Origin: Polyangiales bacterium
GTDB taxonomy: Bacteria > Myxococcota_A > Polyangia > Polyangiales > Polyangiaceae
NCBI GenBank assembly: GCA_038231275.1
Contig: JBBRLQ010000003.1
Span: 320,001 to 384,000, forward strand
Direction: 5' to 3'
DNA: 64,000 nucleotides
Part shown: piece after piece, positions 18,475 through 44,295 of the stretch
Numbering within the stretch: position 1 is the first letter of the stretch
Layout: the number at the start of each line of letters is the position of its first letter
Made by a program: the position numbers and the translations under genes
The notes under the pieces: generated by a model
Told to the model about the DNA's origin: nothing
The model's database searches: none
Seen by the model: only the letters and a program-made list of their open reading frames with translations

Positions 18475-19802
18475 TGCGCGTTCGCAGCTTCTCCCTCGTC
18501 TTCGCGCTCCTTCCGATCGCGAGCGCTGCACCCCTCGCCGGGTGCGGGCTCCTCGTGGGCGTCGACTGGGATCGCGTCGCGCAAACCGACGCAGGGAACA
18601 CCGTCTATCTGCCCGACGGCGCGCCCGCTCCGCCTGGCTACATCCCGCCCGGCACCGATGGCGGAGGCGACGGCGGAGATGGCGGAGGAGTCGGCGGCGA
18701 CAGCGCTCCTCCGACGTGCTCGCCTCCGAAGATCACCTGCGTGCAGGGATGCTGCGACGACGACGTCGATCCGGGCCTCCCGACCGCGGTGACCGCCGGA
18801 CAGAGCAACACGTGCGCGGTGACCTCTACCGGCAAGGTCCGCTGCTGGGGCTCGAACGTCGTCGGACAGCTCGGGCGCGGCTCCGGCCCTGACTCGCTCG
18901 TCCCCAAGACCGCCTATGGAATGCCCTCGGGCGCGACGCAGGCGATCATCGGCTCCGCGCACGGGTGCGCCGTCGTCGGCAACCTGGTCGGATGTTGGGG
19001 CGCCAACGGCAGCGGACAAGTCGGCTTCGACGGCACCCCCGCGTCGCTCGGCCTCGAGACGCCCGGCCGCGTCCAGAAGATCACAGGCAGTGTCATCACC
19101 CTCGCCGTCGGCTCGAATTTCAGCTGCGCCACCGTCGACGGCACCGCGTACTGCTGGGGCGACAACGCCGACGGCCAGCTCGCGACCGATCCGAGCACCT
19201 ACCGCTCGAGCACGCCGCTCACGATCGCGCAGCTCGGCTCCGGCGTTCAGTCGGTCGGCGCCGGGAACAACGAAGCGTGCGCGGTCGTCGCGGGCGGTGG
19301 CGTCACGTGTTGGGGCGGCTCGAACAATCCTCCTACGCCGGTCGCCGGAATCACCGGCGCGAGCAAGATCGCCGTCGCGCCCCTCTTCAAGTGCGCGCTC
19401 GCCGGCGGCACCGTCCTCTGCTGGGGGGACAACTTCTACGCCGAGCTCGGAAACAACTCGTCCGACTGGGTCACGCCGAAGCCGCCGACCGGCTTGCCCA
19501 CCGACGTCACCCAGCTCGCCATCGGCGGCACGCACGGCTGCGCGCTCTCGTCGGGCGAGATCTGGTGCTGGGGCAACAACCCCTACGGCGAGCTCGGGCG
19601 CGATCCCGTCAGCGTCTCGAAGGCGCTCCCCGCGAAGGTGCCCGGCGTCACCGGCGTCATCGGCATCGCCGCCGGCGATAACCACACGTGCGCGCTCCTC
19701 GGCAACAACACGCTCAAGTGCTGGGGCAGCAACGGCGTCGGTCAGCTCGGAAACGGCACGAAAGACAGCGGTCCCACGCCGGTCACGGTCACCTGGCCGT
19801 AG
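18474..19802 (+). CDS. RCC1-repeat lipoprotein
   Basis: Lipobox LAGC, repeated CA...CWG.N..GQLG units, TGATG coupling to the previous gene. Confidence 0.9.
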   Translation: MRVRSFSLVFALLPIASAAPLAGCGLLVGVDWDRVAQTDAGNTVYLPDGAPAPPGYIPPGTDGGGDGGDGGGVGGDSAPPTCSPPKITCVQGCCDDDVDPGLPTAVTAGQSNTCAVTSTGKVRCWGSNVVGQLGRGSGPDSLVPKTAYGMPSGATQAIIGSAHGCAVVGNLVGCWGANGSGQVGFDGTPASLGLETPGRVQKITGSVITLAVGSNFSCATVDGTAYCWGDNADGQLATDPSTYRSSTPLTIAQLGSGVQSVGAGNNEACAVVAGGGVTCWGGSNNPPTPVAGITGASKIAVAPLFKCALAGGTVLCWGDNFYAELGNNSSDWVTPKPPTGLPTDVTQLAIGGTHGCALSSGEIWCWGNNPYGELGRDPVSVSKALPAKVPGVTGVIGIAAGDNHTCALLGNNTLKCWGSNGVGQLGNGTKDSGPTPVTVTWP

Positions 19803-19863
19803 ACCTGGGCGCAGACCTGGCCGTCGCCGCGAAAAAGGGTGATACCGTCGGTTTTGCCGCCGC

Positions 19864-22644
19864 ATGGTCAAGCGCAAGGTCTCCCTCAACGGCGACGGTC
19901 CGAGCCCGGGCACTCTCGGCGCGGGGGACAAGACCGCGCGTGACGGCGCGAGCGCGGCGCCGTCGAACGTCGTCCTCGAGCTGTTCTTCGACACCGGTCT
20001 CGTCTTCCACGAGGTGCCGCTCCCGAACGGCCTTCCCGACATCGTCAGCGGCTTCATGGTGATGAAGGACGCCGTCCAGCGCGGCGGCGCCGACACCTTC
20101 AGCGTGCGTCGCGCCGCCGCGGGCGAAGAGCCCGACGTCGAGGTCAGCGCGGTCGAGCACCTGTCGGAGCTGATGAACCGCTGGCTCCCGGTGCCCTACC
20201 AGCTCTCGTGCCCGTACGCCGTCCAAGTGTTCTTGTCCGGCAGCGACGAGGGCGTGCGCGCGATGCTCGCGATCGACACGTACGCCGAGCCCGACTCGAA
20301 AGGACGTCACCTCGATCCGAAGATCGACGAAGGCCGCCCGTTCCGTCCGCTCGATCGCACCGAGCACGCGCAGTTCCTCGACCAGACCGAGACGCGCGAG
20401 CTCGTTCGCAAGCTCGAGAAGACCGGGATGGAGAAGGCGCTCTTCAAGGTCGCCGCGCTCCTCGAGACGATCGGACCGATGCTCCCGCGCCTCCAGCTCC
20501 ACACGCTTCAGTCGCGCCCGCAGATCCCGGTGTCGCTCGTCGTCGACTTCGGCAACTCACGCTCGACGGCGGTGCTCTGCGAGGCGCGCGAGAAGGGGAT
20601 GTTCGCCATCCCGCTCGAGATGCGCTCGTCGCAGAATCCGTTCCTCGTTCACGAAGAGACGTTCGACTCGCGCGTCACGTTCCTCCCGAGCGCGTTCGAC
20701 AAATCGGTCTTCCCGGTCGGCGTCGCCGAGTCGTTCGCGTCGCCGTCGATCGTGCGCATGGGCCGCGAAGCGCTCGATCGCGCGCTCGAGACGCCGCACC
20801 GCTACCAGTGCACCCTCTCCGGCCCCAAGCGCTATTTGTGGGACCACCGCCAGACCGACGACCGCTGGTATTTCGCGGCAAAACAGGACGCCGAGTACAA
20901 ACCCGTCTTCGGGCGCATCCTCAAGTACGTCCCCGAGGAGCACGGCGGGCTCATGCTCCGCCAGGACGGCCCCGCGGTCCCCGCCGATCCGCGCTACGCC
21001 CCGCGCGCCGTCATGCTGTTCGCCGTCGCCGAGATCCTGGCGCAGGCCTACGCCCAGATCAATTCGCCATCCTACCGCGCCTTCCAGGGCAAAGAGCAGA
21101 ACGGGCGCGTCCTCAAGCACGTCGCGTTCACCTTCCCGTCGGCGATGCGCAAAGAGGAGAAGGACGTCTACGAGGCGCTCGTCCGCAACGCCGTCATCCT
21201 CGCGTCGTACGTCCTCAACATCCGCCCCGAGCACCAGCCCAACTTCACGCCCGACGGTGGGCAGGGGCGCTACGACGATTTTCTCTTCGTCGACGAGGCC
21301 CTCGCCGCGCAGATGGTCTACGTCTTCCAGGAGGTCTCGCAGAGCTACTCCGGCAGCATGGAGGACTTCGTCGGCGTCTACGGCCAGAAGCCGGGCTCGG
21401 TGCGCATCGCGTCGGTCGACATCGGCGGCGGCACGAGCGACGTGATGATCGCCGAGTACGAAGACAAGATGGCCGGCGCCGGCACCAGCCTGTCGATCAA
21501 GAAGCTGTTCCAGGACGGCGTCTCGATCGCCGGCGACGAGGTTTGCCGCGCGATCGTCGAGGACGTGGTCTTCTCGCAGATCCTCCAGCAGCTGCCCACG
21601 GCCGGCGCGCGCGCGAAGCTGGTGCATCTCTTTGGCGAGGGCGACGCCGGGCACGGACACTCGTGGCGAACGCTGAAGGCCAAGCTGGTCCCGTATTTTT
21701 GGCTGCCCCTCGCGCGCTGCTACTGGGCGCTCGCCGAGGGGTTCGAGATCCCCGAGCACAACGACGAGAAGCTCTACAGCGTCGACGAGATCTTCCGCGT
21801 CTTCCAGAGCCCCGCGTACTCGCACGCCGTCCTCGCCGAGGCCGATCGCTTCCTCGCCGAGACCGTCCCCGAGTTCCCGGGCCTCCTCAATTTGTTCTTC
21901 CGCATGGGTCGCGCCGAGGTCGAGCGCGCGATCGAGGGCGTCCTCCGCGAGCCGCTCCGTCGCTACGCCGACATCATCGCGCAGTTCGACGTCGATCTCC
22001 TCGTCCTCGCGGGCCGCACCTCGGCGCTCAAATGCGTGCGCAACATCTTCGTCCGCGAGATGCCGGTCGCCGCGCCGCGCATCAAAAACATGTCGAGCTA
22101 CAAAGTCGGCGACTGGTACCCGGCGAAGTGGCAGGCCCTCGGCTTCATCAAAGATCCGAAATCGACGGTCACAGCGGGCGCGACGGTGCTGCACCTCGCG
22201 AGCAAGAATCGTCTGCCCGGGTTCTCGCTCGACGGCATCACGGAGCTCGTACAAAAGCCGATCTACGGCCTTTATCAAGACGTCGAGCCGCACATCAGCT
22301 ACGCGAACGAGCTCTTCAAGAAGGGCAAAATCTCGGACCCGGTGCCGTACACGACCGGGATGGTGATCGGCTTCCGCAACGTCGCGTCACAAGAGATGGA
22401 CGGCTCGCCGCTCTTCGAGGTGCACCCCGCGAACAAAGACGTCGAGCAGGCGCTCCTCGAAGATCGCGTCGCGCTCAAGTTCGAGCTGACCGACAAGGGG
22501 CAGATCTTGGTCAACGACGTCGTCTCGCAGAAGGACGTGTACTCGTTCGGCAAGGACGACTTCACGCTCATGCTGAAGACGGTGACGAGCGATCGCTACT
22601 GGCTCGACACCGGCGTCTTCAAGAACGTGACGAAGTACCTCTAG
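19864..22644 (+). CDS. srfB: SrfB-family protein (Hsp70/actin-fold ATPase)
   Basis: VDFGNSRS, SGPKRYLWD, EILAQAYAQINS, DEALAAQMVY, IASVDIGGGTSD, AGD, LAGRTS, WYP..DPKST, IGFR and YWLDTG appear in the order seen in SrfB proteins. Confidence 0.85.
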   Translation: MVKRKVSLNGDGPSPGTLGAGDKTARDGASAAPSNVVLELFFDTGLVFHEVPLPNGLPDIVSGFMVMKDAVQRGGADTFSVRRAAAGEEPDVEVSAVEHLSELMNRWLPVPYQLSCPYAVQVFLSGSDEGVRAMLAIDTYAEPDSKGRHLDPKIDEGRPFRPLDRTEHAQFLDQTETRELVRKLEKTGMEKALFKVAALLETIGPMLPRLQLHTLQSRPQIPVSLVVDFGNSRSTAVLCEAREKGMFAIPLEMRSSQNPFLVHEETFDSRVTFLPSAFDKSVFPVGVAESFASPSIVRMGREALDRALETPHRYQCTLSGPKRYLWDHRQTDDRWYFAAKQDAEYKPVFGRILKYVPEEHGGLMLRQDGPAVPADPRYAPRAVMLFAVAEILAQAYAQINSPSYRAFQGKEQNGRVLKHVAFTFPSAMRKEEKDVYEALVRNAVILASYVLNIRPEHQPNFTPDGGQGRYDDFLFVDEALAAQMVYVFQEVSQSYSGSMEDFVGVYGQKPGSVRIASVDIGGGTSDVMIAEYEDKMAGAGTSLSIKKLFQDGVSIAGDEVCRAIVEDVVFSQILQQLPTAGARAKLVHLFGEGDAGHGHSWRTLKAKLVPYFWLPLARCYWALAEGFEIPEHNDEKLYSVDEIFRVFQSPAYSHAVLAEADRFLAETVPEFPGLLNLFFRMGRAEVERAIEGVLREPLRRYADIIAQFDVDLLVLAGRTSALKCVRNIFVREMPVAAPRIKNMSSYKVGDWYPAKWQALGFIKDPKSTVTAGATVLHLASKNRLPGFSLDGITELVQKPIYGLYQDVEPHISYANELFKKGKISDPVPYTTGMVIGFRNVASQEMDGSPLFEVHPANKDVEQALLEDRVALKFELTDKGQILVNDVVSQKDVYSFGKDDFTLMLKTVTSDRYWLDTGVFKNVTKYL

Positions 22645-22658
22645 AGAAGGAGTCGCGC

Positions 22659-23279
22659 GTGAACGATCCGGCGATTCGCACGCTCCTCGACGCGCTCGCC
22701 GGCGTCGTCGACGCGGAGGCGCTGAAGGCCGAGATGCGCGCGTACCTCGGCGATGCGCCGGTCGCGTCCGAGAAGCCAGCGCCGGCGGAAGGGAGCGGGC
22801 GCTTTCTCTTGCAGGACATCTTGGACGACTCGATCTTGGGCGCGAAGTCCGGGGACAAATCGTTCCCGCTGCGCCTCCTCTTCAGCGAGCTCGCGACGCG
22901 CGCGGGTGAGCAAAAGGAGGAGACCGCGTTCACGCTGCTCTGCGCGCTCAACGTGTACTTCCGCGTCGACGCCGACGACGAAGTGAAGATGCGCCTCGGC
23001 CACGAGGTGAGCCGCCTCTATTACCGCTTCATGGACGAGGCGCGCCCCGAGGGGCTCGCGCCGGTGCAAGTGTCGGGGCTCGTCGCGGCGCTTCTCTCGA
23101 CCGAGCTCTCCCGCGTTCGCCTCGAGGCGGTCGATCACGCCGCGACGTTCGACTCGCAGACGCACGAGCGCGCCCCAGGCTCCGATCCCGCCTCCGGCAC
23201 GGTGCGGCGGCCCCTCTCGTTCTTGTGCCGCGTCACGCAGACGGGGATGGTCCGCATCAAGGCCAGCGTCGCGACCTAA
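22659..23279 (+). CDS. Hypothetical protein with GrpE-like C-terminal beta domain
   Basis: AAGGAG SD and GTG start 14 nt after the srfB stop. C-terminus FDSQTHE...GTVRRPLSF...GMVRIKASV resembles the GrpE FDP..HEA...G.V...VLRPA.V signature. Confidence 0.6.
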   Translation: MNDPAIRTLLDALAGVVDAEALKAEMRAYLGDAPVASEKPAPAEGSGRFLLQDILDDSILGAKSGDKSFPLRLLFSELATRAGEQKEETAFTLLCALNVYFRVDADDEVKMRLGHEVSRLYYRFMDEARPEGLAPVQVSGLVAALLSTELSRVRLEAVDHAATFDSQTHERAPGSDPASGTVRRPLSFLCRVTQTGMVRIKASVAT

Positions 23280-23332
23280 ATCGAGAAAAAGACGACCGAC
23301 GGCTTCACAAACCCCTGCGCGCGGCGTCTGCC

Positions 23333-24004
23333 ATGGCGAGGGGGGCAGCCTTGGACGACGATCGACCATCCGAGCCCCCGGCCATCGGCAAGCTCGTCAT
23401 GCTGCGCCCGCAGCCGGGGCTGCCGAACCGGGAGGACAGCGAAAAGAGAATCCGCACGCTCGTAGAGGCGGGGGACCTCGGCACCGCGGTGACTGGGTCG
23501 CTCCGGCTCTACGGGGCCGAGGTGTATGGGTTCATCGCCGCGCTCATCGAGGTGCCGGCGTTCGCGCGCCAGGTGTACGTGGCGATGGGGGAGCTGGTGT
23601 GGGCCGGCCTCCCGATGTTCGAGTGGCGCTGTGACTTGCGTACGTGGATGTACGGCATCGCGCGGCGGTCGATCGCCAGATACCGCGCCGAGTACGGATC
23701 GCCGACCAACGTGCTCTTCACCGAGGCGCCCCGGGCTCCGAGCTCGGGGCCGGTCCGCCAAAAGGCGTTCCGCGGCCTCGTCGCTGGCCTCCGCCGGAAG
23801 CTCGCGCCCGAAGAGCGGGAGCTCCTCATCTTGCGCGTGGACCGCCGGCTCTCCTGGTGGAGCATCGCCGTCACGAGCATCGGCGAGGGCGCCGGGGACG
23901 ACGCGCTCGCCCGCGAAGAGCGCCGCCTCCGGGTGGCCCTCGCCTGTCTTCGGGAGAAGCTCGCCCAGATCGCCAAGGAGCACGGTATCCTCGCCGCGCG
24001 GTAA
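23333..24004 (+). CDS. ECF-type RNA polymerase sigma factor
   Basis: YGAEVYGF...FEWRCDLRTWMYGIAR (region 2) and LAPEERELLILRVDRRLSW (region 4). Start uncertain. Confidence 0.75.
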   Translation: MARGAALDDDRPSEPPAIGKLVMLRPQPGLPNREDSEKRIRTLVEAGDLGTAVTGSLRLYGAEVYGFIAALIEVPAFARQVYVAMGELVWAGLPMFEWRCDLRTWMYGIARRSIARYRAEYGSPTNVLFTEAPRAPSSGPVRQKAFRGLVAGLRRKLAPEERELLILRVDRRLSWWSIAVTSIGEGAGDDALAREERRLRVALACLREKLAQIAKEHGILAAR

Positions 24005-24009
24005 GGCCG

Positions 24010-26091
24010 ATGAGAGGGGACAACGCAAACCGGACGCCCGAGGTTCTCTCCTCGGGCGGGGAGTACGACGACTTCCTTCAGGCGGTCGCGCACGCGCCGG
24101 CGCGCAAGCCTCCGCCGGACGTGCCGCTCGGGAGCCGCTGGGGCGACGGGGATCGCTACATCCTCGAGCGCCGCCTCGGTCGCGGCGGAATGGGCATCGT
24201 GTACGCCGCGACGGACACGCTCCTCGGCCGGCTCGTCGCGCTCAAGGTGCTCGACGGTCAGGTCGCCAGCGAGGTCGGCGCGCACGCGCTCCTCCGTGAG
24301 GCGCGCCTCGCCGCGCGGATCGAGCACGAGCGCGTCGCGCGCGTCTACGACGTGGGAGAGCACGAGGGGTCGCTCTTCGTCGCGATGGAGTTCGTGCGCG
24401 GGCAGACGCTGCGCACGTGGATGACGGGGCGCCGCGTCGAGCGCCCGCACGCGATCTCGATCGCGACGCAGATCGCCGAGGGCCTCGCCGCGCTCCACGA
24501 GACCGTCGTGATCCACCGGGATTTGAAGCCCGAAAACGTGATGCTGTCCGAGCAGGGCGGCGTGAAGCTCCTCGATTTCGGGCTCGCGCGGCACGCGGCG
24601 GAGGCGGCGGAGGCGGCAGCGGCCAGTGCAGCGGGGGTGGCAGGGCAGGGCGAGGCGCGGCCCGAGACGCGCCGCAGCGTCATCTCGGGCACGCCTGGAT
24701 ACATGGCGCCGGAGCAGCGCAACGGAGCGCCGAGCGATCCGCGCATCGACGTCTACGCGCTCGGCGTCGTCCTCTACGAGCTCGTGTGCGGCGAGCGTCC
24801 ATTTCGCGGGCGCACGCTCGAAGAGATCTTCGCAGCAGCGCAGCGCCCGCTCCTCTTCGACGGGGAGTCGTGGCAGGGCACCGCGCCGGCGCTTCGCGCG
24901 TTCATCGCAAAAGCGGTCGCCGTGGATCCGCGCGAGCGCTACGCGGACGGAGTCTCCGCGCTCGTGGCCCTGCGTGCGCTCGTGGGTCCCTTCGCCGCAG
25001 TCCCGATCCCGGAGACGTTCTCGCAGCTGGGCATCGCGCCGACGATCTCCGTGCCGTACGAGCCGCAAGCGCCCGCTGCGCCTGCCAAGCGCCGCTGGAA
25101 GACTTGGAAGACGATGGTCGCCGCAGCGCTCGTCGTTGGCCTCGGCGTCGGCGTCCTCACGGGCGCGCGCGCACGAAGGAGCGGCCTCGCGCTTCTGCCT
25201 CCGCCGCCGGGCATGGCGTGGATCGACGTCGGCACGATCGAGGTCGGCCGCTCGCGCGCGCAGATCGAGCGCGAATGCGCGGAGATCGGCCCGACCTGCA
25301 ACAAAGAGCGGATGGAGCGCGAGATCCCCGCCGCCTCCGCGATCGTCGCGCCGTTCGCGATCGATCTCCACGAGCTTACCAACCAGGAGCTCGCCGACGC
25401 GCTCACCAACATGAACCCGATGCTCGTCGTGAGCGACGACGACGAGGAGCACTACCCGCGCTACGTGAAATGGGCGCAGGTCGTGGGGCGCAGCGAGGTG
25501 CTCGTCGATCTCCATCGGCGTCGCGGCGGCGTGCAGTTCACCGAGAGCAAGCGCGCGATGCGGCCGACCAAGAGCTTCGAGCCGGCCCCGGGGCACGAGC
25601 GTGAGCCTGCCGTGCAGGTGACGTGGTTCGGCGCGCGCGCGGTGTGCGCGGCGCTCGGCAAGCGCCTGCCGACGGAAGACGAGTGGGAGGCGGCGGCGCG
25701 CGGTCGGGAGGATCGCCGCTTTCCGTGGGGAAACGAGCTCCCGCGCTGCAACGGCGTCGTCGTTCCGCGTGACGGGCTCGTGCCGATGGATCCGTCGTGC
25801 CCGGAGTCGGTCTCGCTCCGCGCCGTCGGCGAAGCGTCGCAGGACGTGACGCCACAGGGCGTCCTCGACCTCGGCGGCAATGTCACGGAGTGGACCGACT
25901 CGGCGTACGTCGAGGGAAACCGCGCCGAGCGCGTGGAGTCGACGCGCGCCGATCTCCCGAAGGTGATTCGCGGGGGCTCGTGGGCGGCGTCGCTCCTCGC
26001 CCGCACGAGCGGCCGAACGCGCCGCGCCGCCGACTTTCTCGGTGGGAACTTGGGCTTTCGGTGCGCCGTGAGCCGCGACTCGAAAAAATAG
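24010..26091 (+). CDS. Ser/Thr protein kinase with TM and FGE-sulfatase (SUMF1-like) domain
   Basis: LGRGGMG, VALK, HRDLKPEN, DFG, GTPGYMAPE; TM segment; RLPTEDEWEAAARG, DLGGNVTEW, GFRCA. Confidence 0.92.
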   Translation: MRGDNANRTPEVLSSGGEYDDFLQAVAHAPARKPPPDVPLGSRWGDGDRYILERRLGRGGMGIVYAATDTLLGRLVALKVLDGQVASEVGAHALLREARLAARIEHERVARVYDVGEHEGSLFVAMEFVRGQTLRTWMTGRRVERPHAISIATQIAEGLAALHETVVIHRDLKPENVMLSEQGGVKLLDFGLARHAAEAAEAAAASAAGVAGQGEARPETRRSVISGTPGYMAPEQRNGAPSDPRIDVYALGVVLYELVCGERPFRGRTLEEIFAAAQRPLLFDGESWQGTAPALRAFIAKAVAVDPRERYADGVSALVALRALVGPFAAVPIPETFSQLGIAPTISVPYEPQAPAAPAKRRWKTWKTMVAAALVVGLGVGVLTGARARRSGLALLPPPPGMAWIDVGTIEVGRSRAQIERECAEIGPTCNKERMEREIPAASAIVAPFAIDLHELTNQELADALTNMNPMLVVSDDDEEHYPRYVKWAQVVGRSEVLVDLHRRRGGVQFTESKRAMRPTKSFEPAPGHEREPAVQVTWFGARAVCAALGKRLPTEDEWEAAARGREDRRFPWGNELPRCNGVVVPRDGLVPMDPSCPESVSLRAVGEASQDVTPQGVLDLGGNVTEWTDSAYVEGNRAERVESTRADLPKVIRGGSWAASLLARTSGRTRRAADFLGGNLGFRCAVSRDSKK

Positions 26092-26103
26092 GAGAATCGA
26101 ACG

Positions 26104-26460
26104 ATGTCCGCGAAGAAATCGAAGAAGACCACCAAGAGCCACGCGATCCTCTCTCTTCGCCCGCGCCCGTTGCCTCCGGGCAAGCGCGCGACGATCGCGA
26201 CGAAGTCCGGCTTGCCGACGTGCATCGTCCTCGCGCCGGTCGGCGTGGGCCCCAAGGGCGGGATCGCCTTCGCGATCGCGCTTCGCGTCGGTCCGTCCGC
26301 CGGCAAGGTGACCTTCGTGCCGCGAGGCAAAGAGACGCTCGTCGTGGACGCGAAGGAGAGCCCGTCCGCCGCCGCGCTGCAGGCCTTCCTGCGCAAGGTC
26401 TGGGACAAGAAGGGCGGGGAGCCGCCGATCGTCGTCGACAACAGTCACGGCCACTCCTAG
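26104..26460 (+). CDS. Small basic hypothetical protein
   Basis: AGGAG SD and GC3 bias; fills the gap between the kinase and the peptidase on the same strand. Confidence 0.65.
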   Translation: MSAKKSKKTTKSHAILSLRPRPLPPGKRATIATKSGLPTCIVLAPVGVGPKGGIAFAIALRVGPSAGKVTFVPRGKETLVVDAKESPSAAALQAFLRKVWDKKGGEPPIVVDNSHGHS

Positions 26461-26468
26461 GCGCACCC

Positions 26469-27497
26469 ATGAGCCAACGCTGGTCGCTCCTCCTCTACAT
26501 GACCGCGAGCCCGCGCCTCGCGCCGCACGCGCAGGACACGTTGAAGCGCCTCGCCGCCGCGCAGCCCCCCACTGGGCTCGATATCTCGGTGCAGCTCGAC
26601 GCGCGCGGAAAGAAAAAGCCGGCCCGCTACCGTATCGTCAATCGACGGGCCGTCCAGGAGCCGTCCTCGTGGCGGTACCGTCCGCGCGTCGCGCTGCGCG
26701 ACTTTCTCGATTGGGGCCTCCCGAAGGGGAAAAAAGGGCGGTCCGCGCTCGTCATGTGGGGCGAGGGGGGCGGCTGGATTTACCCCGCGGGCCTCTACGA
26801 CGCGCCGGGTCGCGCGCTCATCGACGCCCAGCTCCACGACGCGATCGCAGGATCGCACGCGGGCCGTGTCGACGTGCTCGGCTTCGACGCGTGCCTCATG
26901 GGCATGGTCGAGATCCTCTACGGCGCGCGCGATCTCTGCCGCGCGCAAGTCTCGTCCGAGACGTTCGTCCCGCTCTCGGGGTGGCCGTACCGCGCGATGC
27001 TCGAGGCGCTGGTGCGCAAGCCCGCGACGACCGGCGTGGCGTGGGCCGAGCGCGTCGTGCCGTGCGTGAAGACCGTGCGCGCGTCGTCGACGTTGGCCGC
27101 GTTCGACGCCGCGCGCGCCGACGCCGTGGCCGCCGCCTTTCGCGTGCTCGCGCGAGAGCTCCGGCGCGTCCCCGCCGCTGCCCGCCCCGAGCTCGCCCGC
27201 GCCCGCGCAGACATGCTGCACGTCGGCAACCCGTACTTCGTCGACGTCCTCTCGATGCTCCGCTCGATCGAGCGCTGCGTCGCCGATCGCAAGGTCGCCG
27301 CCGCCGTCATCAAGGTGCGCCGCGAGATCGTCCGCGCGCGCCTGGCGGTCGCCTCCTCCGGCTCCGACAACCGCGCGATGACCGGCCTCTCGATCTTCTT
27401 CCCCGAGACGAAGACGACTTTCCTCGCGCCGTATCAGGAGCTCGCGTTCGCCAAGAAGACCGGCTGGGGGGCGTTCCTCACCCGCTACCTCAAATGA
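26469..27497 (+). CDS. Clostripain (peptidase C11) family protein; catalytic His appears replaced
   Basis: WSLLLYM, LRDFLDW, LVMWGEGGGW (family normally W.HG.GW), DVLGFDACLMGMVE, SE..P..GWPY, GLSIFFP. Confidence 0.82.
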   Translation: MSQRWSLLLYMTASPRLAPHAQDTLKRLAAAQPPTGLDISVQLDARGKKKPARYRIVNRRAVQEPSSWRYRPRVALRDFLDWGLPKGKKGRSALVMWGEGGGWIYPAGLYDAPGRALIDAQLHDAIAGSHAGRVDVLGFDACLMGMVEILYGARDLCRAQVSSETFVPLSGWPYRAMLEALVRKPATTGVAWAERVVPCVKTVRASSTLAAFDAARADAVAAAFRVLARELRRVPAAARPELARARADMLHVGNPYFVDVLSMLRSIERCVADRKVAAAVIKVRREIVRARLAVASSGSDNRAMTGLSIFFPETKTTFLAPYQELAFAKKTGWGAFLTRYLK

Positions 27498-28107
27498 GAC
27501 CGCGCTCTTTGCCGCGCGCGTGCAGGCGCTCGCGCACCAGCTGAAAGCGCTTTCGCAGGCGCGCGGCGTGCTGCGCGAGCGCGCGATCGTCGAGCGTGCC
27601 ACCGTCGGGCACGAGGATCGCTGCCACGTCCCGCCACGCGAGCGCGCGGTCCACGCGGAGGACCAGCAGCGCGCGATCGTCCTCCGGTAGCTCGTCGCGC
27701 AAGCGCTGCAGCTCGCTGCGCTTCTCGGTGCGAAGGGCCGAAGCGGTCTCGGTGCGGATGCGCGTCGCCAGCTCCTCGACCTCCGTGAAGCTCGCCACGT
27801 GCACCTCGTGCCGGGCGTGCCGCGCTTCCCGCCGTCGCACGCTCACCGACGCGTTGCGCGCGAGGAGGTAGCACCACGTCCGCACCGAGCACCGCCACTC
27901 GAAGGTCGCGAAGGTCTGCCACAGGCGCTCCGCGAACAAGGAGAACGCGTCGTCGGCGAAATCGGCGTCTTGGTGGAGCGCCACGAGGAACCCGAACACC
28001 TCGGCGCCATGCCGTTGCAACGTCGTCGCCAACGCCGCCCGATGATCTCCGGCCGCCCAGGCGGCGCGGATCGCGGAGTCGTCGTCCTCGCGGCGCCCTT
28101 CGGCCAT
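27490..28107 (-). CDS. ECF-type RNA polymerase sigma factor (paralog of 23333..24004)
   Basis: HGAEVFGFL...FEWRCSVRTWCYLLARN and LPEDDRALLVLRVDRALAW. Alternative start at 28140. Confidence 0.82.
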   Translation of the reverse strand: MAEGRREDDDSAIRAAWAAGDHRAALATTLQRHGAEVFGFLVALHQDADFADDAFSLFAERLWQTFATFEWRCSVRTWCYLLARNASVSVRRREARHARHEVHVASFTEVEELATRIRTETASALRTEKRSELQRLRDELPEDDRALLVLRVDRALAWRDVAAILVPDGGTLDDRALAQHAARLRKRFQLVRERLHARGKERGLI

Positions 28108-28178: not shown

Positions 28179-29465
28179 ATGAGCGACAAACCCGTCTGGC
28201 TCCCCAACCTCGTCGGCGGCGTCTCCATCTGGAAGCTCGCGCCTGATCTCAACGAGGCGAAGTTCATGGACGGGCGGCTGCTCGTCCCCGAGACCGAAGG
28301 GACCGACAGCCTCCCGTCCAAGGTTCGCTGGGACGTCGCCGATCTCGTGCCGCTGAAGGAGGCGCGCGCCGCTCATGCGGCCGATGTCGACGGAGCCATC
28401 CGCGATTTCTTCGCGTGCCTCGAGCTCGTGAAAATAGCGCTCTCGAGCGAGGCGAGCGGGTACGCAAAATACAAGGACGCCTTCACGGTCCCGAGCCTCG
28501 ACGCCGAAGACGGCGCCAGCTACTTCTTTTCGCCGCGCGAGAAGAAGCTCAAGGTGATCAACTGGGGCGCGAGCCCGCGCGCGATCGCCGGGAGCGCGGA
28601 GCTCTTCTTCGGATACCAGGCGTTCGACAAGCTCGCGCGTGAAGCAAGCGCCGCCGCCGCCCTTGGTGGCGCGACCGCGGTCGCCGGGGCACCGTCCGCT
28701 CCGGTCGCGGCAGTGGCTCCGGTCGCGCCCGCGCCTGCCGCTGCGACGGCGGCGAAAGAAGAAGAGGAGAAGAAGAAGGAAGACGAGAAGAAGAAGGAAG
28801 ACGAGAAGAAGAAGGAAGACGAGCAGAAGCGCCCGTGGTGGATCTGGCTCCTCGTCGTCCTCGGCCTCCTCGCCGTCATCCTCCTTGTCCTCTTTCTGTT
28901 GAAGGCGTGCGACAAGCCGCGCGTCATGGACGGCGCCGACGCGCAGACGGACGCGCTCGCCGACGTCACCACGGCCGCGAACGGTGAGGCGGGCTCGGAG
29001 GGCGGGCTCGACGGGACGACCGACGCGCGCGCGGACGCAGGCGCCGACGCCGGCGACGCGAAGAGCGACGCCGCCGACGCCAAGTCCGACGCCGCAGACG
29101 CGAAGGCCGACGCGGCCGACTCCGGCAAAGACGCTGCGGCGAAGGACGCGGGCCGTGGCGGAGGAGGGGGAGGCGGAGGGGGAGGCGGAGGTGGCGGCGG
29201 AGGCGGCGGCGGTCACACGTTCAAGATCATCCCCAAGGGCGGCGGCGCGCCGATCGAGATCGACGGCGATCGCCTCCCGCACCGCACGCACTTCCATCCC
29301 GACGCCGTCAAATGGCGCGTCGAGGCGGGGCGCGAGCTCCTCGTCGACGGTCAGCCTGCCGACGGCACGGGCGACACGTTCGATGTCTTCCTGAAGCCCG
29401 GCGCCTCGTTCGGCGGCATTCGCGTCAGCTGGCAAGACGCCGCAGGGAAGTGGCACCTGCACTGA
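28179..29465 (+). CDS. Single-pass membrane protein, SrfA-like
   Basis: N-domain ending FTVPSLD...YFF...LKVINWG, low-complexity linker, WWIWLLVVLGLLAVILLVLFLLKAC TM, acidic/Gly linker and small C-terminal beta domain. Alternative GTG start at 28170. Confidence 0.6.
   Translation: MSDKPVWLPNLVGGVSIWKLAPDLNEAKFMDGRLLVPETEGTDSLPSKVRWDVADLVPLKEARAAHAADVDGAIRDFFACLELVKIALSSEASGYAKYKDAFTVPSLDAEDGASYFFSPREKKLKVINWGASPRAIAGSAELFFGYQAFDKLAREASAAAALGGATAVAGAPSAPVAAVAPVAPAPAAATAAKEEEEKKKEDEKKKEDEKKKEDEQKRPWWIWLLVVLGLLAVILLVLFLLKACDKPRVMDGADAQTDALADVTTAANGEAGSEGGLDGTTDARADAGADAGDAKSDAADAKSDAADAKADAADSGKDAAAKDAGRGGGGGGGGGGGGGGGGGGGHTFKIIPKGGGAPIEIDGDRLPHRTHFHPDAVKWRVEAGRELLVDGQPADGTGDTFDVFLKPGASFGGIRVSWQDAAGKWHLH
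28771..28823. repeat. 18-bp tandem repeat x3 encoding KKKEDE
   Basis: AAGAAGAAGGAAGACGAG three times in a purine-rich tract. Confidence 0.85.
29157..29213 (+). repeat. Poly-glycine tract (19 Gly codons)
   Basis: GGN x19 with mixed third positions. Confidence 0.9.
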
Positions 29466-29527: not shown

Positions 29528-30187
29528 ATGGCCTACCGCGACGAGCTCGAGGCGCTTCGGAGCCGCGAAGAGGCCCTCGTCCGTGAGCTCGAAGAGACGC
29601 GACGCCTCCGCGTGGCGAGCGAGCGGCGCACCCTCCCGGTCCTCGAGCAGCTCCGTGTGGCGAGCCCCTGTCCGTCGAAGTGGGAGGACATGATCGGCGA
29701 CGAGCGGGTCCGCTTCTGCGGATCGTGCGCGAAGAACGTGTACGACCTGTCGGCGATGAGCCGCGCCGAGGCCGAAGACTTCGTCGCGCGGCACTCTCCG
29801 TCGGAACGCGCGGGAAAAGAAGGCGTTTGCGTCACGTTTCGCCGCCGCGCCGATGGCAAGGTGCTGACGGCCGACTGCCCCGTCGGCGTGCGTCGTCGTC
29901 GCTTCGGGATCGGCGTCATCGCGTTCGCCGCCGCCGCCAGCGCCGCGGCGTTCGGCGTGGTCGTAGAAGATCGCGACTCGGGCGTCGCGCGGCCTAGCCT
30001 CGAGCGGCACTGCCCCGCCCACAAGACCGCCGATCACAGGACCGAGAGGAGTGATGAGTCGCCGTCGATCGGCGACGATGGCAACACCGTCACGACGGGG
30101 CTGATCATGGGCGATCCGCCGAAGCCGAGCGGACGCACGACGGGCTGCCTCTGCCAACCCGGCGATCCGCTCTGCAGCTGCCTCTAG
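29528..30187 (+). CDS. Cys-motif membrane protein of unknown function
   Basis: SPCPSKWEDMIGDERVRFCGSCAKNVYDLS, TADCPVG, TM segment, C-terminal CLCQPGDPLCSCL. Confidence 0.75.
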   Translation: MAYRDELEALRSREEALVRELEETRRLRVASERRTLPVLEQLRVASPCPSKWEDMIGDERVRFCGSCAKNVYDLSAMSRAEAEDFVARHSPSERAGKEGVCVTFRRRADGKVLTADCPVGVRRRRFGIGVIAFAAAASAAAFGVVVEDRDSGVARPSLERHCPAHKTADHRTERSDESPSIGDDGNTVTTGLIMGDPPKPSGRTTGCLCQPGDPLCSCL

Positions 30188-32904: not shown

Positions 32905-32951
32905 CGACGGACTTATAGCAGGCCGACGATCGCGCCGCGCCGCGCGCTCCG

Positions 32952-33404
32952 TCAGCGGGAGGTTTGTGTCAAGGCGCGCGCGCGCCGCAACGCTTCACGC
33001 GCAGACTCGGGGCTGGCGGCGCGCACGTCGATCACGACAGTCGTGCCTGCGGTGCGCTCGTCCATCTGGAGGCGGCCGATCTCGGGTGGGCAGACCTCGC
33101 CGTCCGCGCACGGGACGCGGCGCGTGAGGTGGCACTCGAGGACATGCCAGATCGACGCCGGCGACACGCCGTCGATCTGGCGCACGTACACGGTCGCCCC
33201 TTCCAGCCTCGGCGGCTCCTTCTGCGAGACCTCGATCTTGAGCGGCTCTACGCGAACAATCGCGTCCTTGAAGCCGAGCGGTCCCCCGGCGCTTGCGTCC
33301 TCCCAGACGTCGGCGCACGCGGTCACATCGGCGCGGCCCGGGGTCGTCGCCGGCCGATCGCACGCGGCGATCGCGCACCACGCGATGGACGAGGCGACGG
33401 CCAC
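32952..33404 (-). CDS. Hypothetical lipoprotein (paralog of 33429..33959)
   Basis: AIAAC lipobox-like; shares VEP..L.GA..G....I...L.CH..L.RAR with the divergent neighbour. Start uncertain. Confidence 0.6.
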   Translation of the reverse strand: MAVASSIAWCAIAACDRPATTPGRADVTACADVWEDASAGGPLGFKDAIVRVEPLKIEVSQKEPPRLEGATVYVRQIDGVSPASIWHVLECHLTRRVPCADGEVCPPEIGRLQMDERTAGTTVVIDVRAASPESAREALRRARALTQTSR

Positions 33405-33428
33405 GACGCGGCTTGCTAGGGTGATTGC

Positions 33429-33959
33429 ATGGATCGCGGACGTCGAGCCCACGGCCTTCCGTCGATCGCGCGCGTCGCCCCTTGCGCGATTCTCGCCGCG
33501 TGCGCCGCGTGCGCCGCCTTCGTCCCCGACAGTCGAACACCGACCGATCGCGCGCGCGAGCTGGACGCGAAGTGCGTCGGCGCCAGCGAGGCCGACGTCG
33601 CGCCGCTCCTCTCCGCCGCCAACGTCGACTCCGTCGAGCCCGCGTACTCCTACGTGAGCGGCGGTCCCAACGGCCGCGACGCGCACCTCCGCGGCGCGCG
33701 CATCCGCGTGAAGCCCCTCCCCGGCGCCACCCGCGAGTCGATCTCGCGGAGCCTCCAGTGCCACCAAGCGCGGGTCGTCACCGGCGCCGTCACCGCGGCC
33801 GCCGCCGATCCCTACACGCTCCCCGCCCGCTGGCTCACGATCGAGGTCGAGTCCGAGTCCGACGCGTTCGCGGTCCTCGCCCTTACCGACGATCTCGCCG
33901 ATGCGCGTCGCGTCCTCGAGCGTGCGCGGTTCTTCGCGGGGCATCGCCGGTCACCCTGA
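33429..33959 (+). CDS. Hypothetical lipoprotein/secreted protein
   Basis: LAACAAC signal, GC3 bias, motif shared with 32952..33404. Confidence 0.7.
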   Translation: MDRGRRAHGLPSIARVAPCAILAACAACAAFVPDSRTPTDRARELDAKCVGASEADVAPLLSAANVDSVEPAYSYVSGGPNGRDAHLRGARIRVKPLPGATRESISRSLQCHQARVVTGAVTAAAADPYTLPARWLTIEVESESDAFAVLALTDDLADARRVLERARFFAGHRRSP

Positions 33960-34238
33960 GCCGCCGGCGTCGGCCGGGCCGTCGGGCAGCCCTGCATCGA
34001 CCGCGGGGCATCCGGCGCCGTTGCAATAGGGGTTGCCGCTCTTCGTCGGATCGGAGGGGCAGCAGTAATTCTCGGCGCACGTCGAGGGCTGCTGGCAAGT
34101 GAGCCCCTCGTCGCAGTCGTTGTGGCTGAGCGCGGGATTGCACCGCTCTCCTTCGCGACCTCCATCGCACCCGCTCTCGGCGAGAACGAGCGCGAGCGCG
34201 ACGGAGACCAGCGATACGGCGATGTTCGTTCGGTTCAT
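33951..34238 (-). CDS. Small Cys-rich lipoprotein
   Basis: Signal ending ESGC, 8 further Cys, DAG-rich tail; starts 8 nt after the porin stop. Confidence 0.75.
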   Translation of the reverse strand: MNRTNIAVSLVSVALALVLAESGCDGGREGERCNPALSHNDCDEGLTCQQPSTCAENYCCPSDPTKSGNPYCNGAGCPAVDAGLPDGPADAGGSG

Positions 34239-34246
34239 GGGGGGCC

Positions 34247-35707: not shown

Positions 35708-35713
35708 CCTCGA

Positions 35714-35746
35714 AGGCTACGGACGGGCGCGTAAAGACAGCGTCAA
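35714..35746 (-). promoter_or_regulatory. KdpE-type direct-repeat box plus -10 element for the porin gene
   Basis: Minus strand TTGACG-CTGTC-TTTACG, then 10 nt, TAGCCT, 6 nt, ATG. Confidence 0.65.
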
Positions 35747-35813
35747 GACGGGCCGCGTAACCGCTAAGAAAGAGTTAATGCCGCAGGCCGGACGCACTAT
35801 GCTCGGCACCATC

Positions 35814-36191
35814 ATGAGGGGAAACACAAACGCCGATCTCATGGGCTTGTCGCTGGAGGAGCTCGTCTCGGAGCTCGAAGCGTTCTACGAGCTCTCCACC
35901 GACATGGTGTCCGTCTCCTCCGCCGACGGCCGCTTCCGCCGCGTCAACCGCGCATGGGAAAAGGCCATCGGCCACCCCGCCGGCGAGATCGCCGGCAAGC
36001 GCTGGCTCGACTTCGTGCACCCCGACGACGTGCAGAAGACGATCGACGCGGCGCGCAGCTTGTCGGCGTCGGATCTGGCGGAGTTCCAGAACCGCTACAA
36101 GCACCAGGACGGCCACTGGGTCACGCTCTCGTGGCGGTCGACGGCGTGGTCGGGCGGGCTCACCTACGCGATCACCCGTGTCGTCGGCTGA
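35814..36191 (+). CDS. Stand-alone PAS domain protein
   Basis: FYELSTDM...DGRFRRVNRAW...G..WLDFVHPDD...NRYKHQDGHWVTLSW. Start could be 35778, 35814 or 35841. Confidence 0.85.
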   Translation: MRGNTNADLMGLSLEELVSELEAFYELSTDMVSVSSADGRFRRVNRAWEKAIGHPAGEIAGKRWLDFVHPDDVQKTIDAARSLSASDLAEFQNRYKHQDGHWVTLSWRSTAWSGGLTYAITRVVG

Positions 36192-36236
36192 TCCAATTTC
36201 CCGGTAGTCGCAACCATTCCGCGTCATCATGACGCG

Positions 36237-37493: not shown

Positions 37494-37514
37494 CGGTGGT
37501 CGCGTGCTTCCCCT

Positions 37515-37682: not shown

Positions 37683-37749
37683 CCCGCCGCCGGAGCGTCG
37701 TCCGGAAGATTCAGGGGGGCTGGCGCTTCGACAATGTCCCACGCGTTGA

Positions 37750-37782: not shown

Positions 37783-37787
37783 GGTGC

Positions 37788-40622: not shown

Positions 40623-43196
40623 ATGCCCGACGACATGCCCCCGGTGATCCAGACCCTCGAGCGCGCGATCGCCGACGCGAGCGGCTCGGTCGATCCCACG
40701 AGCGACGCCGCGGACGAGCACGCGCGCGCGCTGAAAGATCTCGGCGTGCGCGCGCGGAAGCTCGCGGGCGCGTGGGGGAGGCCTCCGTGCCTGGGATTCT
40801 TCGGTCCGTCGCAGGCGGGAAAATCGTTCCTCGTCGGCGCGCTGCTCTCGCACGAGCTCGGCTCGCTCGAGGTGCAGTGTCCGTCGCGCGTGCTCGATTT
40901 TTTGAAGGAGATCAATCCGGCGAAGGGCGTCGAGTCGACAGGCGTGGTCACGCGCTTCTCCACGCAACCGCCGACGGGGCAAAAGGCGCTGACGCACGGC
41001 GACTTTCATTGCCAGCTTCTCTCGCTCGAGCTCGTCCTCGAGTCGCTCGCGACGGGCTTCCTCGTCGAGTGCACGTCACCGGCCGTCGATCCCGAGCGGG
41101 TAGAGAAGTGCCTGCGCGACGCACGTCTCCAGGCCGGCCCCGCGGCCCCCGCCGTCTACCTCGAGGCCTGGGAAAACGTCTGGCACGATCTCAACAAGAA
41201 GTACCAAGACCGCCACCCGTACCTGAACGATCTGCGCCGGCAGCGCGCGATCGTCGACGGCGCGTGGATGAAGGAGGTGAAGACGGCGTCTGGATGGCTC
41301 CTCGTCTTCTCGCTCTTGTGGGGCGGCCCCGGACACGCCGCCGATCTCGACGCGGTGCTTCGTCTCCTCGTTCAAGGTCTCGACGCCGTCGGCCACGCGC
41401 GCACCGTCGAGGTCGGCCTCGAGCACGTGCGCGCCTCCACTGGCGGCGTGAGCGTCATCGACGCGGGGTGTCTCAACTCGCTCGGCTCCGGCAAGACGCC
41501 GGTGCGTGTCTTCGCGCAAGACGGCGCGTCTCCCGGCCGCGAGGTCGCCGTCGAGCCGGGAGTCCTCTCCGCGCTCATCGCCGAGATCCGTTTGCCCCTG
41601 AAGCCCGTCGCCGGGTCGCTCCTCGACAAGGTCGATATCCTGGATTTCCCCGGGGGTCGCGCGCTCAAGGGCATCAACGGCTTCGGCCGCGCCGAGCTGA
41701 ACACGAACAAGCTCGAGAACGCCGTCGAGGTCTACAAGCGCGGCAAGCTCACGTTCCTCTTCGAGCAGTTCTCGCTCGATCGCGAGATCACCGCGCTCTG
41801 CCTCTGCTCGCCAGGCCCGACGAAGCCCGAGGCCGTGCAGCTCCAGTCGCAGGTCGAGAGCTGGATCCAGACGCGCTACGGCGCCCCGTCGCCGACCTCG
41901 CCTCAGGAGGTCGACGATCCGAGCCTTTTCATCGCGCTCACGAAATACGACATGAGCCTCGGCGCGCTCCGCAGCGACAACGCGAAGGATCGCTGGGACT
42001 CGCGCGTGCAGGAAGCGTGCGTCGACTTCTGGGCGAAGAGCGGCAACTCGTGGATCACCAACTGGGGCGCCCGCGGCGCGCCGTTCGCGAACATGTTCTG
42101 GATCCGCAACCCGTACGCCGATCAGATGCAGAGCCTGAAACCCGGCACGCCGGACTACGGGACGATCAAGAACGGCTACATGGAGTCGCGCGCGGTGCAG
42201 CGGCACCTCAAGTCGTTCGCCGACAAGTGGACCGCGGTCGAAGGCGACGACGAGGCCGCGAAGCTCCCGAAGAGCGGCGTGCCCCTCCTCGCGCAGAGCC
42301 TCCGGCGCAAGCTCAGCGAGGACGTGAAGGCCGCCGAGCTTCGCGCCGAAGCGAGGGCCATCCGCGCCGAGCTCCTCACCGTGCTCAAGGCGATGACCCC
42401 GTCGAAGGACGCGGCCGAAGAACGCGCGCGCATCCTGGAGAGCGCGCAGGCGCTGGTCGGCGCGGTCGGCAAGGAGATGAGCCGCAAGTGCAGCGGCGCC
42501 GTCTTCGGCGACTTGTTCCGCGAGATCGTACCGGCCGAGCAGGAGATCGAGCACGAGGTCCGCAAGGCCTACGGAGCCGTCGCGGCGATGTCGATCAAGA
42601 CGAGCGACAAGGTGAAGAAGGTCCTCGTCCACATCCTCAAGTGGTGGGTCGCCGAGGGCGTCGCGCGCGTTCGCCGCAGCCAGCTCCAGATCCCGGCGTC
42701 GCTGGTCGACGTCTTCGTGCGCGAGGTGTGCACGTCGAAGCTCCTCCTGCCGGTGCTCGGTAACGCGATTTACCCCTATTTTTCTCGTAACGTCGTCGAC
42801 ACGAGCATCGTCGCGACGATCATCCAAGTGAAGGTCAGCGACGCGATGCTCGCGCTCTTCTCCGCCGGCGAGCGCCAGACGCCGCAGATCCCCGCGCGCC
42901 TCTCGTACTCCGAGAGCACGGGCACCGGTACCGCAACGTCCGGCGCGCTGGAGACGGGCGCGATCGACTGGAGCAACGTCGACTTCGAGGAGGATCCGAC
43001 CAAGAGCGAGCGCCTCTCGAGCGTCGAGCTGGTGTTCGCGGGGAGCCGTCACTGGCGGCGCTGGAGCGGCGGGCTCGGCGACTTCTATTTGAAGAGCCGC
43101 GGTGGCCAGGCCAAGGTCGCGCCCGACGATCCGCGCGTGCAGCGCCTCGTGGCGGTGCTGCACGAGGTGGAGAAGGTGCATGTCGCGCCCGCATGA
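40623..43196 (+). CDS. srfC: SrfC-family P-loop NTPase
   Basis: GFFGPSQAGKSFLV, INPAKGVESTGVVTRF, DILDFPG, RGKLTFLFE, LTKYD, FANMFWIRNP. TATACT lies 9 nt before the ATG. Confidence 0.85.
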   Translation: MPDDMPPVIQTLERAIADASGSVDPTSDAADEHARALKDLGVRARKLAGAWGRPPCLGFFGPSQAGKSFLVGALLSHELGSLEVQCPSRVLDFLKEINPAKGVESTGVVTRFSTQPPTGQKALTHGDFHCQLLSLELVLESLATGFLVECTSPAVDPERVEKCLRDARLQAGPAAPAVYLEAWENVWHDLNKKYQDRHPYLNDLRRQRAIVDGAWMKEVKTASGWLLVFSLLWGGPGHAADLDAVLRLLVQGLDAVGHARTVEVGLEHVRASTGGVSVIDAGCLNSLGSGKTPVRVFAQDGASPGREVAVEPGVLSALIAEIRLPLKPVAGSLLDKVDILDFPGGRALKGINGFGRAELNTNKLENAVEVYKRGKLTFLFEQFSLDREITALCLCSPGPTKPEAVQLQSQVESWIQTRYGAPSPTSPQEVDDPSLFIALTKYDMSLGALRSDNAKDRWDSRVQEACVDFWAKSGNSWITNWGARGAPFANMFWIRNPYADQMQSLKPGTPDYGTIKNGYMESRAVQRHLKSFADKWTAVEGDDEAAKLPKSGVPLLAQSLRRKLSEDVKAAELRAEARAIRAELLTVLKAMTPSKDAAEERARILESAQALVGAVGKEMSRKCSGAVFGDLFREIVPAEQEIEHEVRKAYGAVAAMSIKTSDKVKKVLVHILKWWVAEGVARVRRSQLQIPASLVDVFVREVCTSKLLLPVLGNAIYPYFSRNVVDTSIVATIIQVKVSDAMLALFSAGERQTPQIPARLSYSESTGTGTATSGALETGAIDWSNVDFEEDPTKSERLSSVELVFAGSRHWRRWSGGLGDFYLKSRGGQAKVAPDDPRVQRLVAVLHEVEKVHVAPA

Positions 43197-44295
43197 GGAC
43201 GCGGCGACCCCTTCCGCCGACGCGGAGGGCCTGCCGTCGATCGACGAGCTCGCGGCGGCCGGCGACACCGAGAAGCTCCTCGAGCTCGCGAAGGGCTACC
43301 GCACCACGCGCGATCTGAAGGCGTGCCTCGCGTGCTACGAGGCGGCGGCGAAGCTGGGGAGCGCGGAGGCCGAGCACGCGGTGGGGCTCTTCCTCCTCTC
43401 GGGCGGCGTCGTGCCGAAGGACGAAAAACAGGCGGCATCCCTCTTCCGAAGCGCCGCCGACAAAGGGCACCTCCCTTCGCGCGTCTACGTCGCGAACCTC
43501 TACGAGCTGGGCCTGCACTACAAGCAAGACGCCGCGAAAGCCGACGTCTGGTACAGGAACGCCGCCCGCACCGCGCAGATCACCGAGGAGCCGGACAGCT
43601 ACGGCTACGCGTACGAGATGGCCGAGCTCGGCTGCGTCCGCTACTGCCTCAAGGTCATCGCCGATCCAGAGACGACCGACGACGATCGCGTGCATTTTGC
43701 ACGCAAAGCGAAGGCCTACGGATACCGCGAAAAAGGGCGGGAAACGGCGCCGCCGCCCGAGCCAGTCGCCACACTCGACGACACGATCACCAAGCCCGAG
43801 CGCCCCCCGCAAGCGAAGCCGAGCACGCCGCCCGCGGCCGACGAAAAAGAGACGGCGCCGAAAAAAGAGAAGACGAAGAGCGCGGCCTCCTCGTCGCTCA
43901 CGATCGGCGCGGGGCTCGTCGCGTTCCTATGGGCAACGCTGCTCGTGGGCGCGGCGGTCGGCGCCGGGTATCTCGGCCTCGAAGGCGTGCGCCTCCTCGT
44001 CGCCAAGTACGGTCCGATCCTCGGCGCGCACGAAGAGCGCATCGTCCTCGGCGTCGCGGCGGGGCTCGCCGTGCTTGGGGCGCTCATGGTCTACACCTTC
44101 AAGAGCGTCTTCCAGGCGACCCTCGCCGCCGCGCTCTTCGCGGGGCTCGGGTGGTTCGTCTGGCGCGCCCCCAACCTCCACCTTTTTCACCTCCAGATCG
44201 CCCAGGCCATCGCCTTCGGGATCGCGGGATTTCTCGCGGCGTTGCTCCTCAAAGGCCTCGGCGGGGGCGCGAAACGACGGAACGATCGTCGGTAG
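43180..44295 (+). CDS. Sel1-repeat membrane protein
   Basis: AAKLGSAEAEHAVG, AADKGHLPS..LYELG..WYRNAA and about 4 C-terminal TMs; overlaps the srfC stop by 17 nt. Confidence 0.8.
   Translation: MSRPHEDAATPSADAEGLPSIDELAAAGDTEKLLELAKGYRTTRDLKACLACYEAAAKLGSAEAEHAVGLFLLSGGVVPKDEKQAASLFRSAADKGHLPSRVYVANLYELGLHYKQDAAKADVWYRNAARTAQITEEPDSYGYAYEMAELGCVRYCLKVIADPETTDDDRVHFARKAKAYGYREKGRETAPPPEPVATLDDTITKPERPPQAKPSTPPAADEKETAPKKEKTKSAASSSLTIGAGLVAFLWATLLVGAAVGAGYLGLEGVRLLVAKYGPILGAHEERIVLGVAAGLAVLGALMVYTFKSVFQATLAAALFAGLGWFVWRAPNLHLFHLQIAQAIAFGIAGFLAALLLKGLGGGAKRRNDRR

Follow-up and report, generated by a model that had tools for sequence, protein, structure and literature searches.

The window, the whole stretch of 64,000 nucleotides of Polyangiales DNA analysed here, carries on its plus strand a gene for a SrfB homologue that is followed at a distance of 14 nt by a short reading frame, orf206, and farther downstream by an srfA-like, an srfC-like and a Sel1-repeat gene, with two blocks of unrelated genes in between:

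19864..22644, plus strand: srfB, encoding a 926-aa predicted Hsp70-like ATPase (PF07520, E 1.4e-113)
22647..22652, plus strand: Shine-Dalgarno sequence AAGGAG, 6 nt before the GTG start of orf206, read from the sequence
22659..23279, plus strand: orf206, GTG start, encoding a 206-aa conserved Srf-operon protein (P0001), from translation, GC3 and homologues
22965..23279, plus strand: C-terminal half of the orf206 product (residues 103-206), GrpE-like in the model, with two helices plus a small beta domain
23148..23171, plus strand: motif F164-D-S-Q-T-H-E-R171, where conservation within the orf206 family is highest
23351-28107: block 1 of unrelated genes, comprising an ECF-sigma-like gene, a Ser/Thr kinase-FGE fusion, a 118-aa ORF, a C11 peptidase and, on the minus strand, a sigma-like gene
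28179..29465, plus strand: srfA-like gene (428 aa), directly after orf206 in relatives and 4.9 kb away here (tblastn, NF040486)
29528-40566: block 2 of unrelated genes, comprising a 219-aa ORF, KdpD, ORFs of 150 and 176 aa, a BBP2 porin, a PAS protein, a Na/H exchanger, a response regulator and Kup
40623..43196, plus strand: srfC-like gene (857 aa; PF10139, E 3.5e-82), in the same operon in relatives
43180..44295, plus strand: Sel1-repeat gene (PF08238), the last conserved gene of the operon

A preliminary description of this DNA had proposed a 206-aa reading frame with an AAGGAG Shine-Dalgarno sequence 14 nt past srfB, and direct reading confirmed everything it stated about the sequence: the srfB stop codon TAG occupies 22642-22644, the GTG of orf206 stands at 22659, and the 206-aa translation ends in ...FDSQTHERAPGSDPASGTVRRPLSFLCRVTQTGMVRIKASVAT. 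It was equally right that a long shadow ORF conceals the gene; because the frame of orf206 has no stop codon back to position 20208, over srfB, the short gene is hidden in ORF lists within a 1023-aa shadow ORF (20208..23279).

orf206 is a real coding gene and not a chance ORF. Its GC content at codon positions 1, 2 and 3 is 0.70, 0.46 and 0.91 (GC3 0.913), similar to the 0.66, 0.40 and 0.92 of srfB, and a sliding frame plot changes from the srfB frame to that of orf206 at about 22.6 kb. A word-index search returned 61 homologues with E values from 6.7e-93 to 1.9e-20, all of them nameless or called 'hypothetical', and those with a source organism come from Polyangiales-type metagenome-assembled genomes (MAGs); their N-termini line up with the proposed GTG start. 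Scanning 19500-24200 for promoters and terminators gave nothing above shuffled sequences, and tblastn of orf206 against plasmids gave only noise.

The family is small: a profile search through all 1.84 billion representative proteins gave 65 at E<=1e-3. Two conserved blocks stand out in a 50-member alignment (A1), R-x-L-L-x-DILDDSILGA-x-x-GDKSFPLR ... LNxYFR in the N-terminal part and EAVDH-x3-FDSxxHER-x-GSD ... RPxSFLCRV ... VRxKAxVxT in the C-terminal part, with D53, L55, I59, P70, R72, N98, F101, R102, S118, Y122, D165, S166, H169, R171, A202 and T206 invariant. Within the F164-R171 motif, D165, S166, H169 and R171 are thus joined by F164 and E170, each at least 90% conserved. The translation has no hydrophobic N-terminus, as expected of a small cytoplasmic protein. 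A 616-aa metagenome gene call (P0121) that resembled a SrfB-orf206 fusion was rejected as a frameshift artefact, its sequence being patchy and, out of frame, arginine-rich.

The srf operon in Polyangiales

The reading of orf206 as a partner of SrfB, put forward in the preliminary description, supposed that its homologues are linked to srfB, and they are. In each of the 18 orf206 loci found among 185,579 species genomes, the gene immediately preceding orf206, on the same strand, encodes a SrfB homologue (53-65% identity). In a 201-genome sample of the order, orf206 occurs in 18 genomes, as a single copy beside srf genes in each, and is immediately preceded by srfB in 17 of them; the two sets overlap and consist of related members, so that they are not independent. 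With our own start assignments, most gaps between srfB and orf206 fall within -8 to +4 nt, and six of the gene pairs overlap, by 4 or 8 nt.

Downstream of orf206, a gene of about 400 codons follows immediately in 16 of the 18 loci, the exceptions being L009, which ends there, and L011; in the 201-genome sample it is directly downstream in 17/18, three of these matched by a C-terminal piece only. A SrfC homologue comes next in 14/18 loci, the remaining four ending too early, and a Sel1-repeat gene follows srfC in 10/18. Sequence comparisons suggest that the ~400-aa gene is probably the equivalent of SrfA. The 428-aa protein of the window is 55% identical over 158 aa (tblastn) to its counterpart beside orf206 in a related genome, G140; the NF040486 SrfA_fam profile matches it with E 1.8e-4 and 21 bits, against a cut-off of 150, and matches the G140 homologue with E 0.0086, both matches being collinear over profile positions 164-299, and BLASTP against the SrfA of Rahnella gives E 0.096. 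A conserved domain of some 158 aa makes up the N-terminal part of the protein; after it come a low-complexity linker rich in Ala/Pro and in Lys/Glu, a probable membrane segment around residue 220, and a glycine run.

The unit in Polyangiales therefore has the order srfB, orf206, srfA-like, srfC, sel1, the third gene being named from its probable equivalence to SrfA. In the window, blocks 1 and 2 split this operon into three pieces, 19864-23279 (srfB and orf206), 28179-29465 (srfA-like) and 40623-44295 (srfC and sel1). G140 shows a different separation, with srfB alone and orf206, srfA-like, srfC and sel1 130 kb off on the same contig. There, srfB is followed by a Cys-rich lipoprotein-like ORF (L061, G140:C3:791000-805000; L051).

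The SrfABC system is widespread, and in many enterobacteria it is annotated as a virulence factor. Like the canonical srfABC of Salmonella, Xenorhabdus and a Rahnella plasmid (NZ_CP093330.1), the Polyangiales unit encodes homologues of SrfB (PF07520) and SrfC (PF10139) and probably a SrfA-like membrane protein, but the Rahnella order is srfA-srfB-srfC without orf206, which relative to the canonical operon is an extra gene in a rearranged one. When the orf206 family was compared by hhalign with SrfA, SrfB, SrfC and the upstream 135-aa protein of Rahnella, only noise was obtained (P 0.071 to 0.63). SrfA is described as the platform for SrfB and SrfC in the accessible part of one source (10.64898/2026.09.18.752743), and the same part makes no mention of a cofactor of SrfB.

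These arrangements bear on what orf206 might do. Lying between srfB and the srfA-like gene and packed tightly on both sides, it could encode a structural adaptor or assembly subunit that connects SrfB with either SrfC or the membrane-anchored SrfA-like protein and has no exchange role, any likeness to GrpE then being a shared small fold or an old relic. In G140, moreover, where srfB stands apart, orf206 is still found beside the srfA-like gene and srfC, an arrangement that fits a general Srf subunit as well as it fits a SrfB cofactor. We regard an adaptor of this kind as rather unlikely, for reasons that come with the comparison to GrpE below.

A further feature of the neighbourhood is the gene at 24010-26091 (plus strand) in block 1, not far from the srf genes, whose product joins a Ser/Thr kinase to an FGE-sulfatase (SUMF1-type) domain. 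An enzyme of the SUMF1 family is reported to flank the canonical srfABC in Haemophilus and Xenorhabdus (10.64898/2026.09.18.752743), and a sulfatase lies near the srf genes of G140 (L061:7972-10284); the association of SUMF1-type enzymes or sulfatases with srf genes may be recurrent.

SrfB as a predicted Hsp70-like ATPase

The SrfB protein carries the three nucleotide-binding motifs of the ASKHA fold, D228-x-G-N-S (phosphate-1), D519-x-GGGT-x-D (phosphate-2) and A716-G-R (adenosine), all invariant in an alignment of 17 sequences (A2) from which the SrfB of L009, with its in-frame stop, and that of L014 were left out. An AF2 model made with this 17-row alignment has a pLDDT of 73, and Foldseek against the PDB returned 271 matches to it at E<=0.001; the best 50 of these are almost all Hsp70 or Hsp110 entries, headed by DnaK (7ko2_B, E 8.3e-14, about 744 columns). 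A search of the PDB with the SrfB sequence gave no match. At the level of prediction, SrfB is thus Hsp70-like.

SrfB, SrfC and the housekeeping GrpE are each encoded once in the genome analysed here, and SrfB is rare in the phylum, exceeding the cut-off in 4 of 301 sampled genomes. In two other genomes (G120 and G285; L055, L056), ORFs of 980 and 1262 aa give weak, sub-threshold PF07520 matches around the phosphate-2 region and may be distant SrfB-like ATPases of a sister family. The in-frame stop in the SrfB homologue of L009 (L009:2967-5819) lies on a MAG contig and reflects either a broken gene or a sequencing error.

The orf206 product compared with GrpE

GrpE (PF01025) is the nucleotide-exchange factor of DnaK and of mitochondrial Hsp70. 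It builds a four-helix bundle from two chains, ends in a beta domain, and exchanges nucleotide on DnaK. The preliminary description had called the orf206 product GrpE-like, a reading that holds in part: fold ranks, ESM clusters and the C-terminal motif all agree weakly with it, but a profile match is absent and the model lacks the coiled coil.

As regards the motif, the GrpE consensus given in the preliminary description agrees with that of 30 Myxococcota GrpE sequences, FDPxxHEA...PGTVV...GYxLxDRLLRPAMVVVA, and hhalign sets the FDSxxHER of orf206 on the FDPxxHEA of GrpE, pairing LSTELSRVRLEAVDH-AATFDSQTHER with ...L.R.GV...G..FDPxxHEA. Both proteins share FD-x-x-x-HE and, at the equivalent position, a C-terminal G-x5-A-x-V, and the spacing equals that in the GrpE of this genome: from the motif Asp to the C-terminal Gly and Ala there are 31 and 37 residues. 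Unlike GrpE, which has Pro and Ala in the motif, orf206 has Ser and Arg. Many Myxococcota genomes (G014, G031 and others; L077-L096) have 2 to 5 PF01025 matches, some of them diverged (28-56 bits) with altered FDx motifs. After FD, diverged PF01025 paralogues in the phylum have FDR, FDA and FDH variants, and the motif proline is therefore not obligatory. In this genome, FDxxxHE occurs 33 times in the 48,380 frames of at least 100 aa, and only in the housekeeping GrpE and in orf206 does it lie 35-60 residues from the frame end; about three such end-placed occurrences are expected by chance over all frames, so that the count carries weight only because it was the place of orf206 beside srfB that drew attention to the gene.

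The hhalign scores behind the pairing are at noise level. Against Myxococcota GrpE alignments with 30 and with 50 members, the orf206 family gave P 0.035-0.048; 6 of 120 block shuffles equalled the real score, the reversed alignment scored 14.2, and Rahnella SrfC, an unrelated control, scored 20.8 (P 0.071). No Pfam entry matched orf206 with hmmscan, at E<=0.01 or at E<=10, nor did any NCBIfam entry, and a genome-wide PF01025 profile scan picked up the housekeeping GrpE (contig C1) alone and not orf206. PDB searches with the sequence and with a profile returned chance matches (4kwy, E 0.25; 5yoa, E 0.63) and no GrpE, and no canonical GrpE stood among the orf206 profile matches in the 1.84 billion proteins. 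In sequence terms, orf206 differs from GrpE in lacking a significant match and falling below a PF01025 profile match.

Structure prediction points in the same direction as the motif. In the AF2 model of the orf206 product (pLDDT 89.2), helices extend as far as residue 147, and short strands lie between 153 and 205. Foldseek against the PDB, the check suggested in the preliminary description, placed GrpE chains at ranks 1-6 and also at 9, 11 and 15, but the best match has E 0.022 (probability 0.54) and none reaches E<=0.001. A VIA search of 48,161 chains with the same model put E. coli GrpE first, the numbering of which fits the VIA ranges. The aligned region is one and the same for six GrpE entries, drawn from five sources (E. 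coli, M. tuberculosis, Geobacillus, human GrpEL1 and an integrative GrpE-DnaK model): about residues 103-206 of the orf206 model. The C-terminal two helices and small beta domain find their best structural matches in GrpE. Besides, GrpE clusters are the nearest named ones by ESM features, with 0.82 for the entire protein and with 0.85 and 0.83 for residues 103-206, atlas scores under 0.9 counting as leads only.

The N-terminal half is where the two proteins part. In place of the long N-terminal coiled-coil helix of GrpE, orf206 has the DILDDSILGA...FPLR region, which is the best-conserved N-terminal motif of the family and has no GrpE counterpart, and, in the model, four short helices with a low-confidence linker; the AF2 monomer contains no long N-terminal helix, its longest being one of 22 residues (107-128). 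A further difference is the candidate partner, SrfB and not a chaperone Hsp70, which is nevertheless, like the partner of GrpE, a predicted Hsp70-type ATPase, encoded next door in 18/18 and 17/18 loci. A complex prediction of SrfB residues 190-926 with orf206 reached a score of 0.18 where the mark is 0.32, and so speaks neither for nor against binding.

Each single line of evidence for GrpE likeness lies below significance, and yet four different kinds of method, independently of one another, arrive at GrpE out of tens of thousands of candidates, and GrpE is the one family that an Hsp70-like neighbour would lead one to expect. For a structural adaptor, the weak GrpE statistics and the conserved N-terminal motif speak in favour, and this non-GrpE half together with the G140 arrangement keeps such a role in consideration; the agreement of the four kinds of method counts against it, as does the partner, an Hsp70-like ATPase, which is the sole context where a GrpE-like head has a known job.

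The GrpE-like head also resembles a DnaK binder, and the genome has a single canonical GrpE, so it is conceivable that the target of orf206 is not SrfB but the housekeeping DnaK or some other Hsp70, and that orf206 would for instance recruit or retune the general chaperone for Srf assembly. We consider this highly improbable: orf206 is present in one copy and only where the srf operon occurs (18/201 genomes of the order), whereas DnaK and GrpE are universal (41/41 genomes), and its motif residues differ from those of GrpE.

A role as an inhibitor or safety partner, which in the manner of an antitoxin would keep SrfB or the Srf complex inactive in the producer cell, would suit a small cytoplasmic protein whose gene lies directly after, and partly overlaps, that of a component of a system called a toxin in Xenorhabdus (PMC6950479; 10.64898/2026.09.18.752743). 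Such a role seems improbable to us, given that canonical srfABC operons do without orf206, that neither Pfam nor NCBIfam matches it, and that its fold matches indicate a cochaperone and not an immunity family.

A proposed cofactor role for orf206

Taken together, these results make the orf206 product a probable diverged GrpE-like cofactor, and its C-terminal module in particular is likely to be derived from GrpE. From the linkage, the Hsp70-like model of SrfB and the fold and motif likeness we infer homology to GrpE and binding to SrfB, and our claim is that orf206 'works like GrpE', not that it 'is a GrpE'. The explanation that we find best is that orf206 encodes a dedicated cytoplasmic cofactor of the Hsp70-like SrfB, in which the C-terminal ~100 residues are a strongly diverged GrpE-type module; as a complete account, it has in our estimate an even chance of being right. 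Whether orf206 acts specifically as an exchange factor or cycle regulator of SrfB is a matter on which we would put equal weight on either answer, exchange activity being what the likeness to GrpE would imply.

In the mechanism that we consider most likely, the beta head of orf206, with its FDSxxHER motif, would dock on the nucleotide-binding domain of SrfB and there speed ADP release or otherwise gate the SrfB ATPase cycle. The N-terminal half, with the DILDDSILGA...FPLR region and short helices instead of a coiled coil, may anchor the protein to other Srf subunits.

To our knowledge, no mechanism is known for SrfB. The literature that we searched held no link between bacterial SrfB and Hsp70 or GrpE, and nothing on the orf206 gene or on a SrfB cofactor. 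SrfABC is reported to be both cytotoxic and insecticidal in Xenorhabdus, and the cofactor reading, if true, would give a first mechanistic handle on SrfB: should SrfB be Hsp70-like and have a dedicated GrpE-like cofactor in one lineage, a regulated ATP/ADP cycle would be very probable. The idea is testable with two soluble proteins, and the soil bacterium they come from is harmless.

Such a cofactor would also add a case of a GrpE that has diverged beyond profile detection and lost its coiled coil, and would touch on the question of how common hidden exchange factors are among odd Hsp70s. As a wider and more tentative proposal, one that we hold to be possible but think somewhat more apt to fail than to stand, Srf systems may be ATP-cycling Hsp70-type machines and not, as the preliminary description had contrasted them, passive toxin subunits. 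The Polyangiales form would then have a GrpE-derived exchange factor that has drifted beyond sequence recognition, a single chain whose four short helices could replace the two-chain four-helix bundle.
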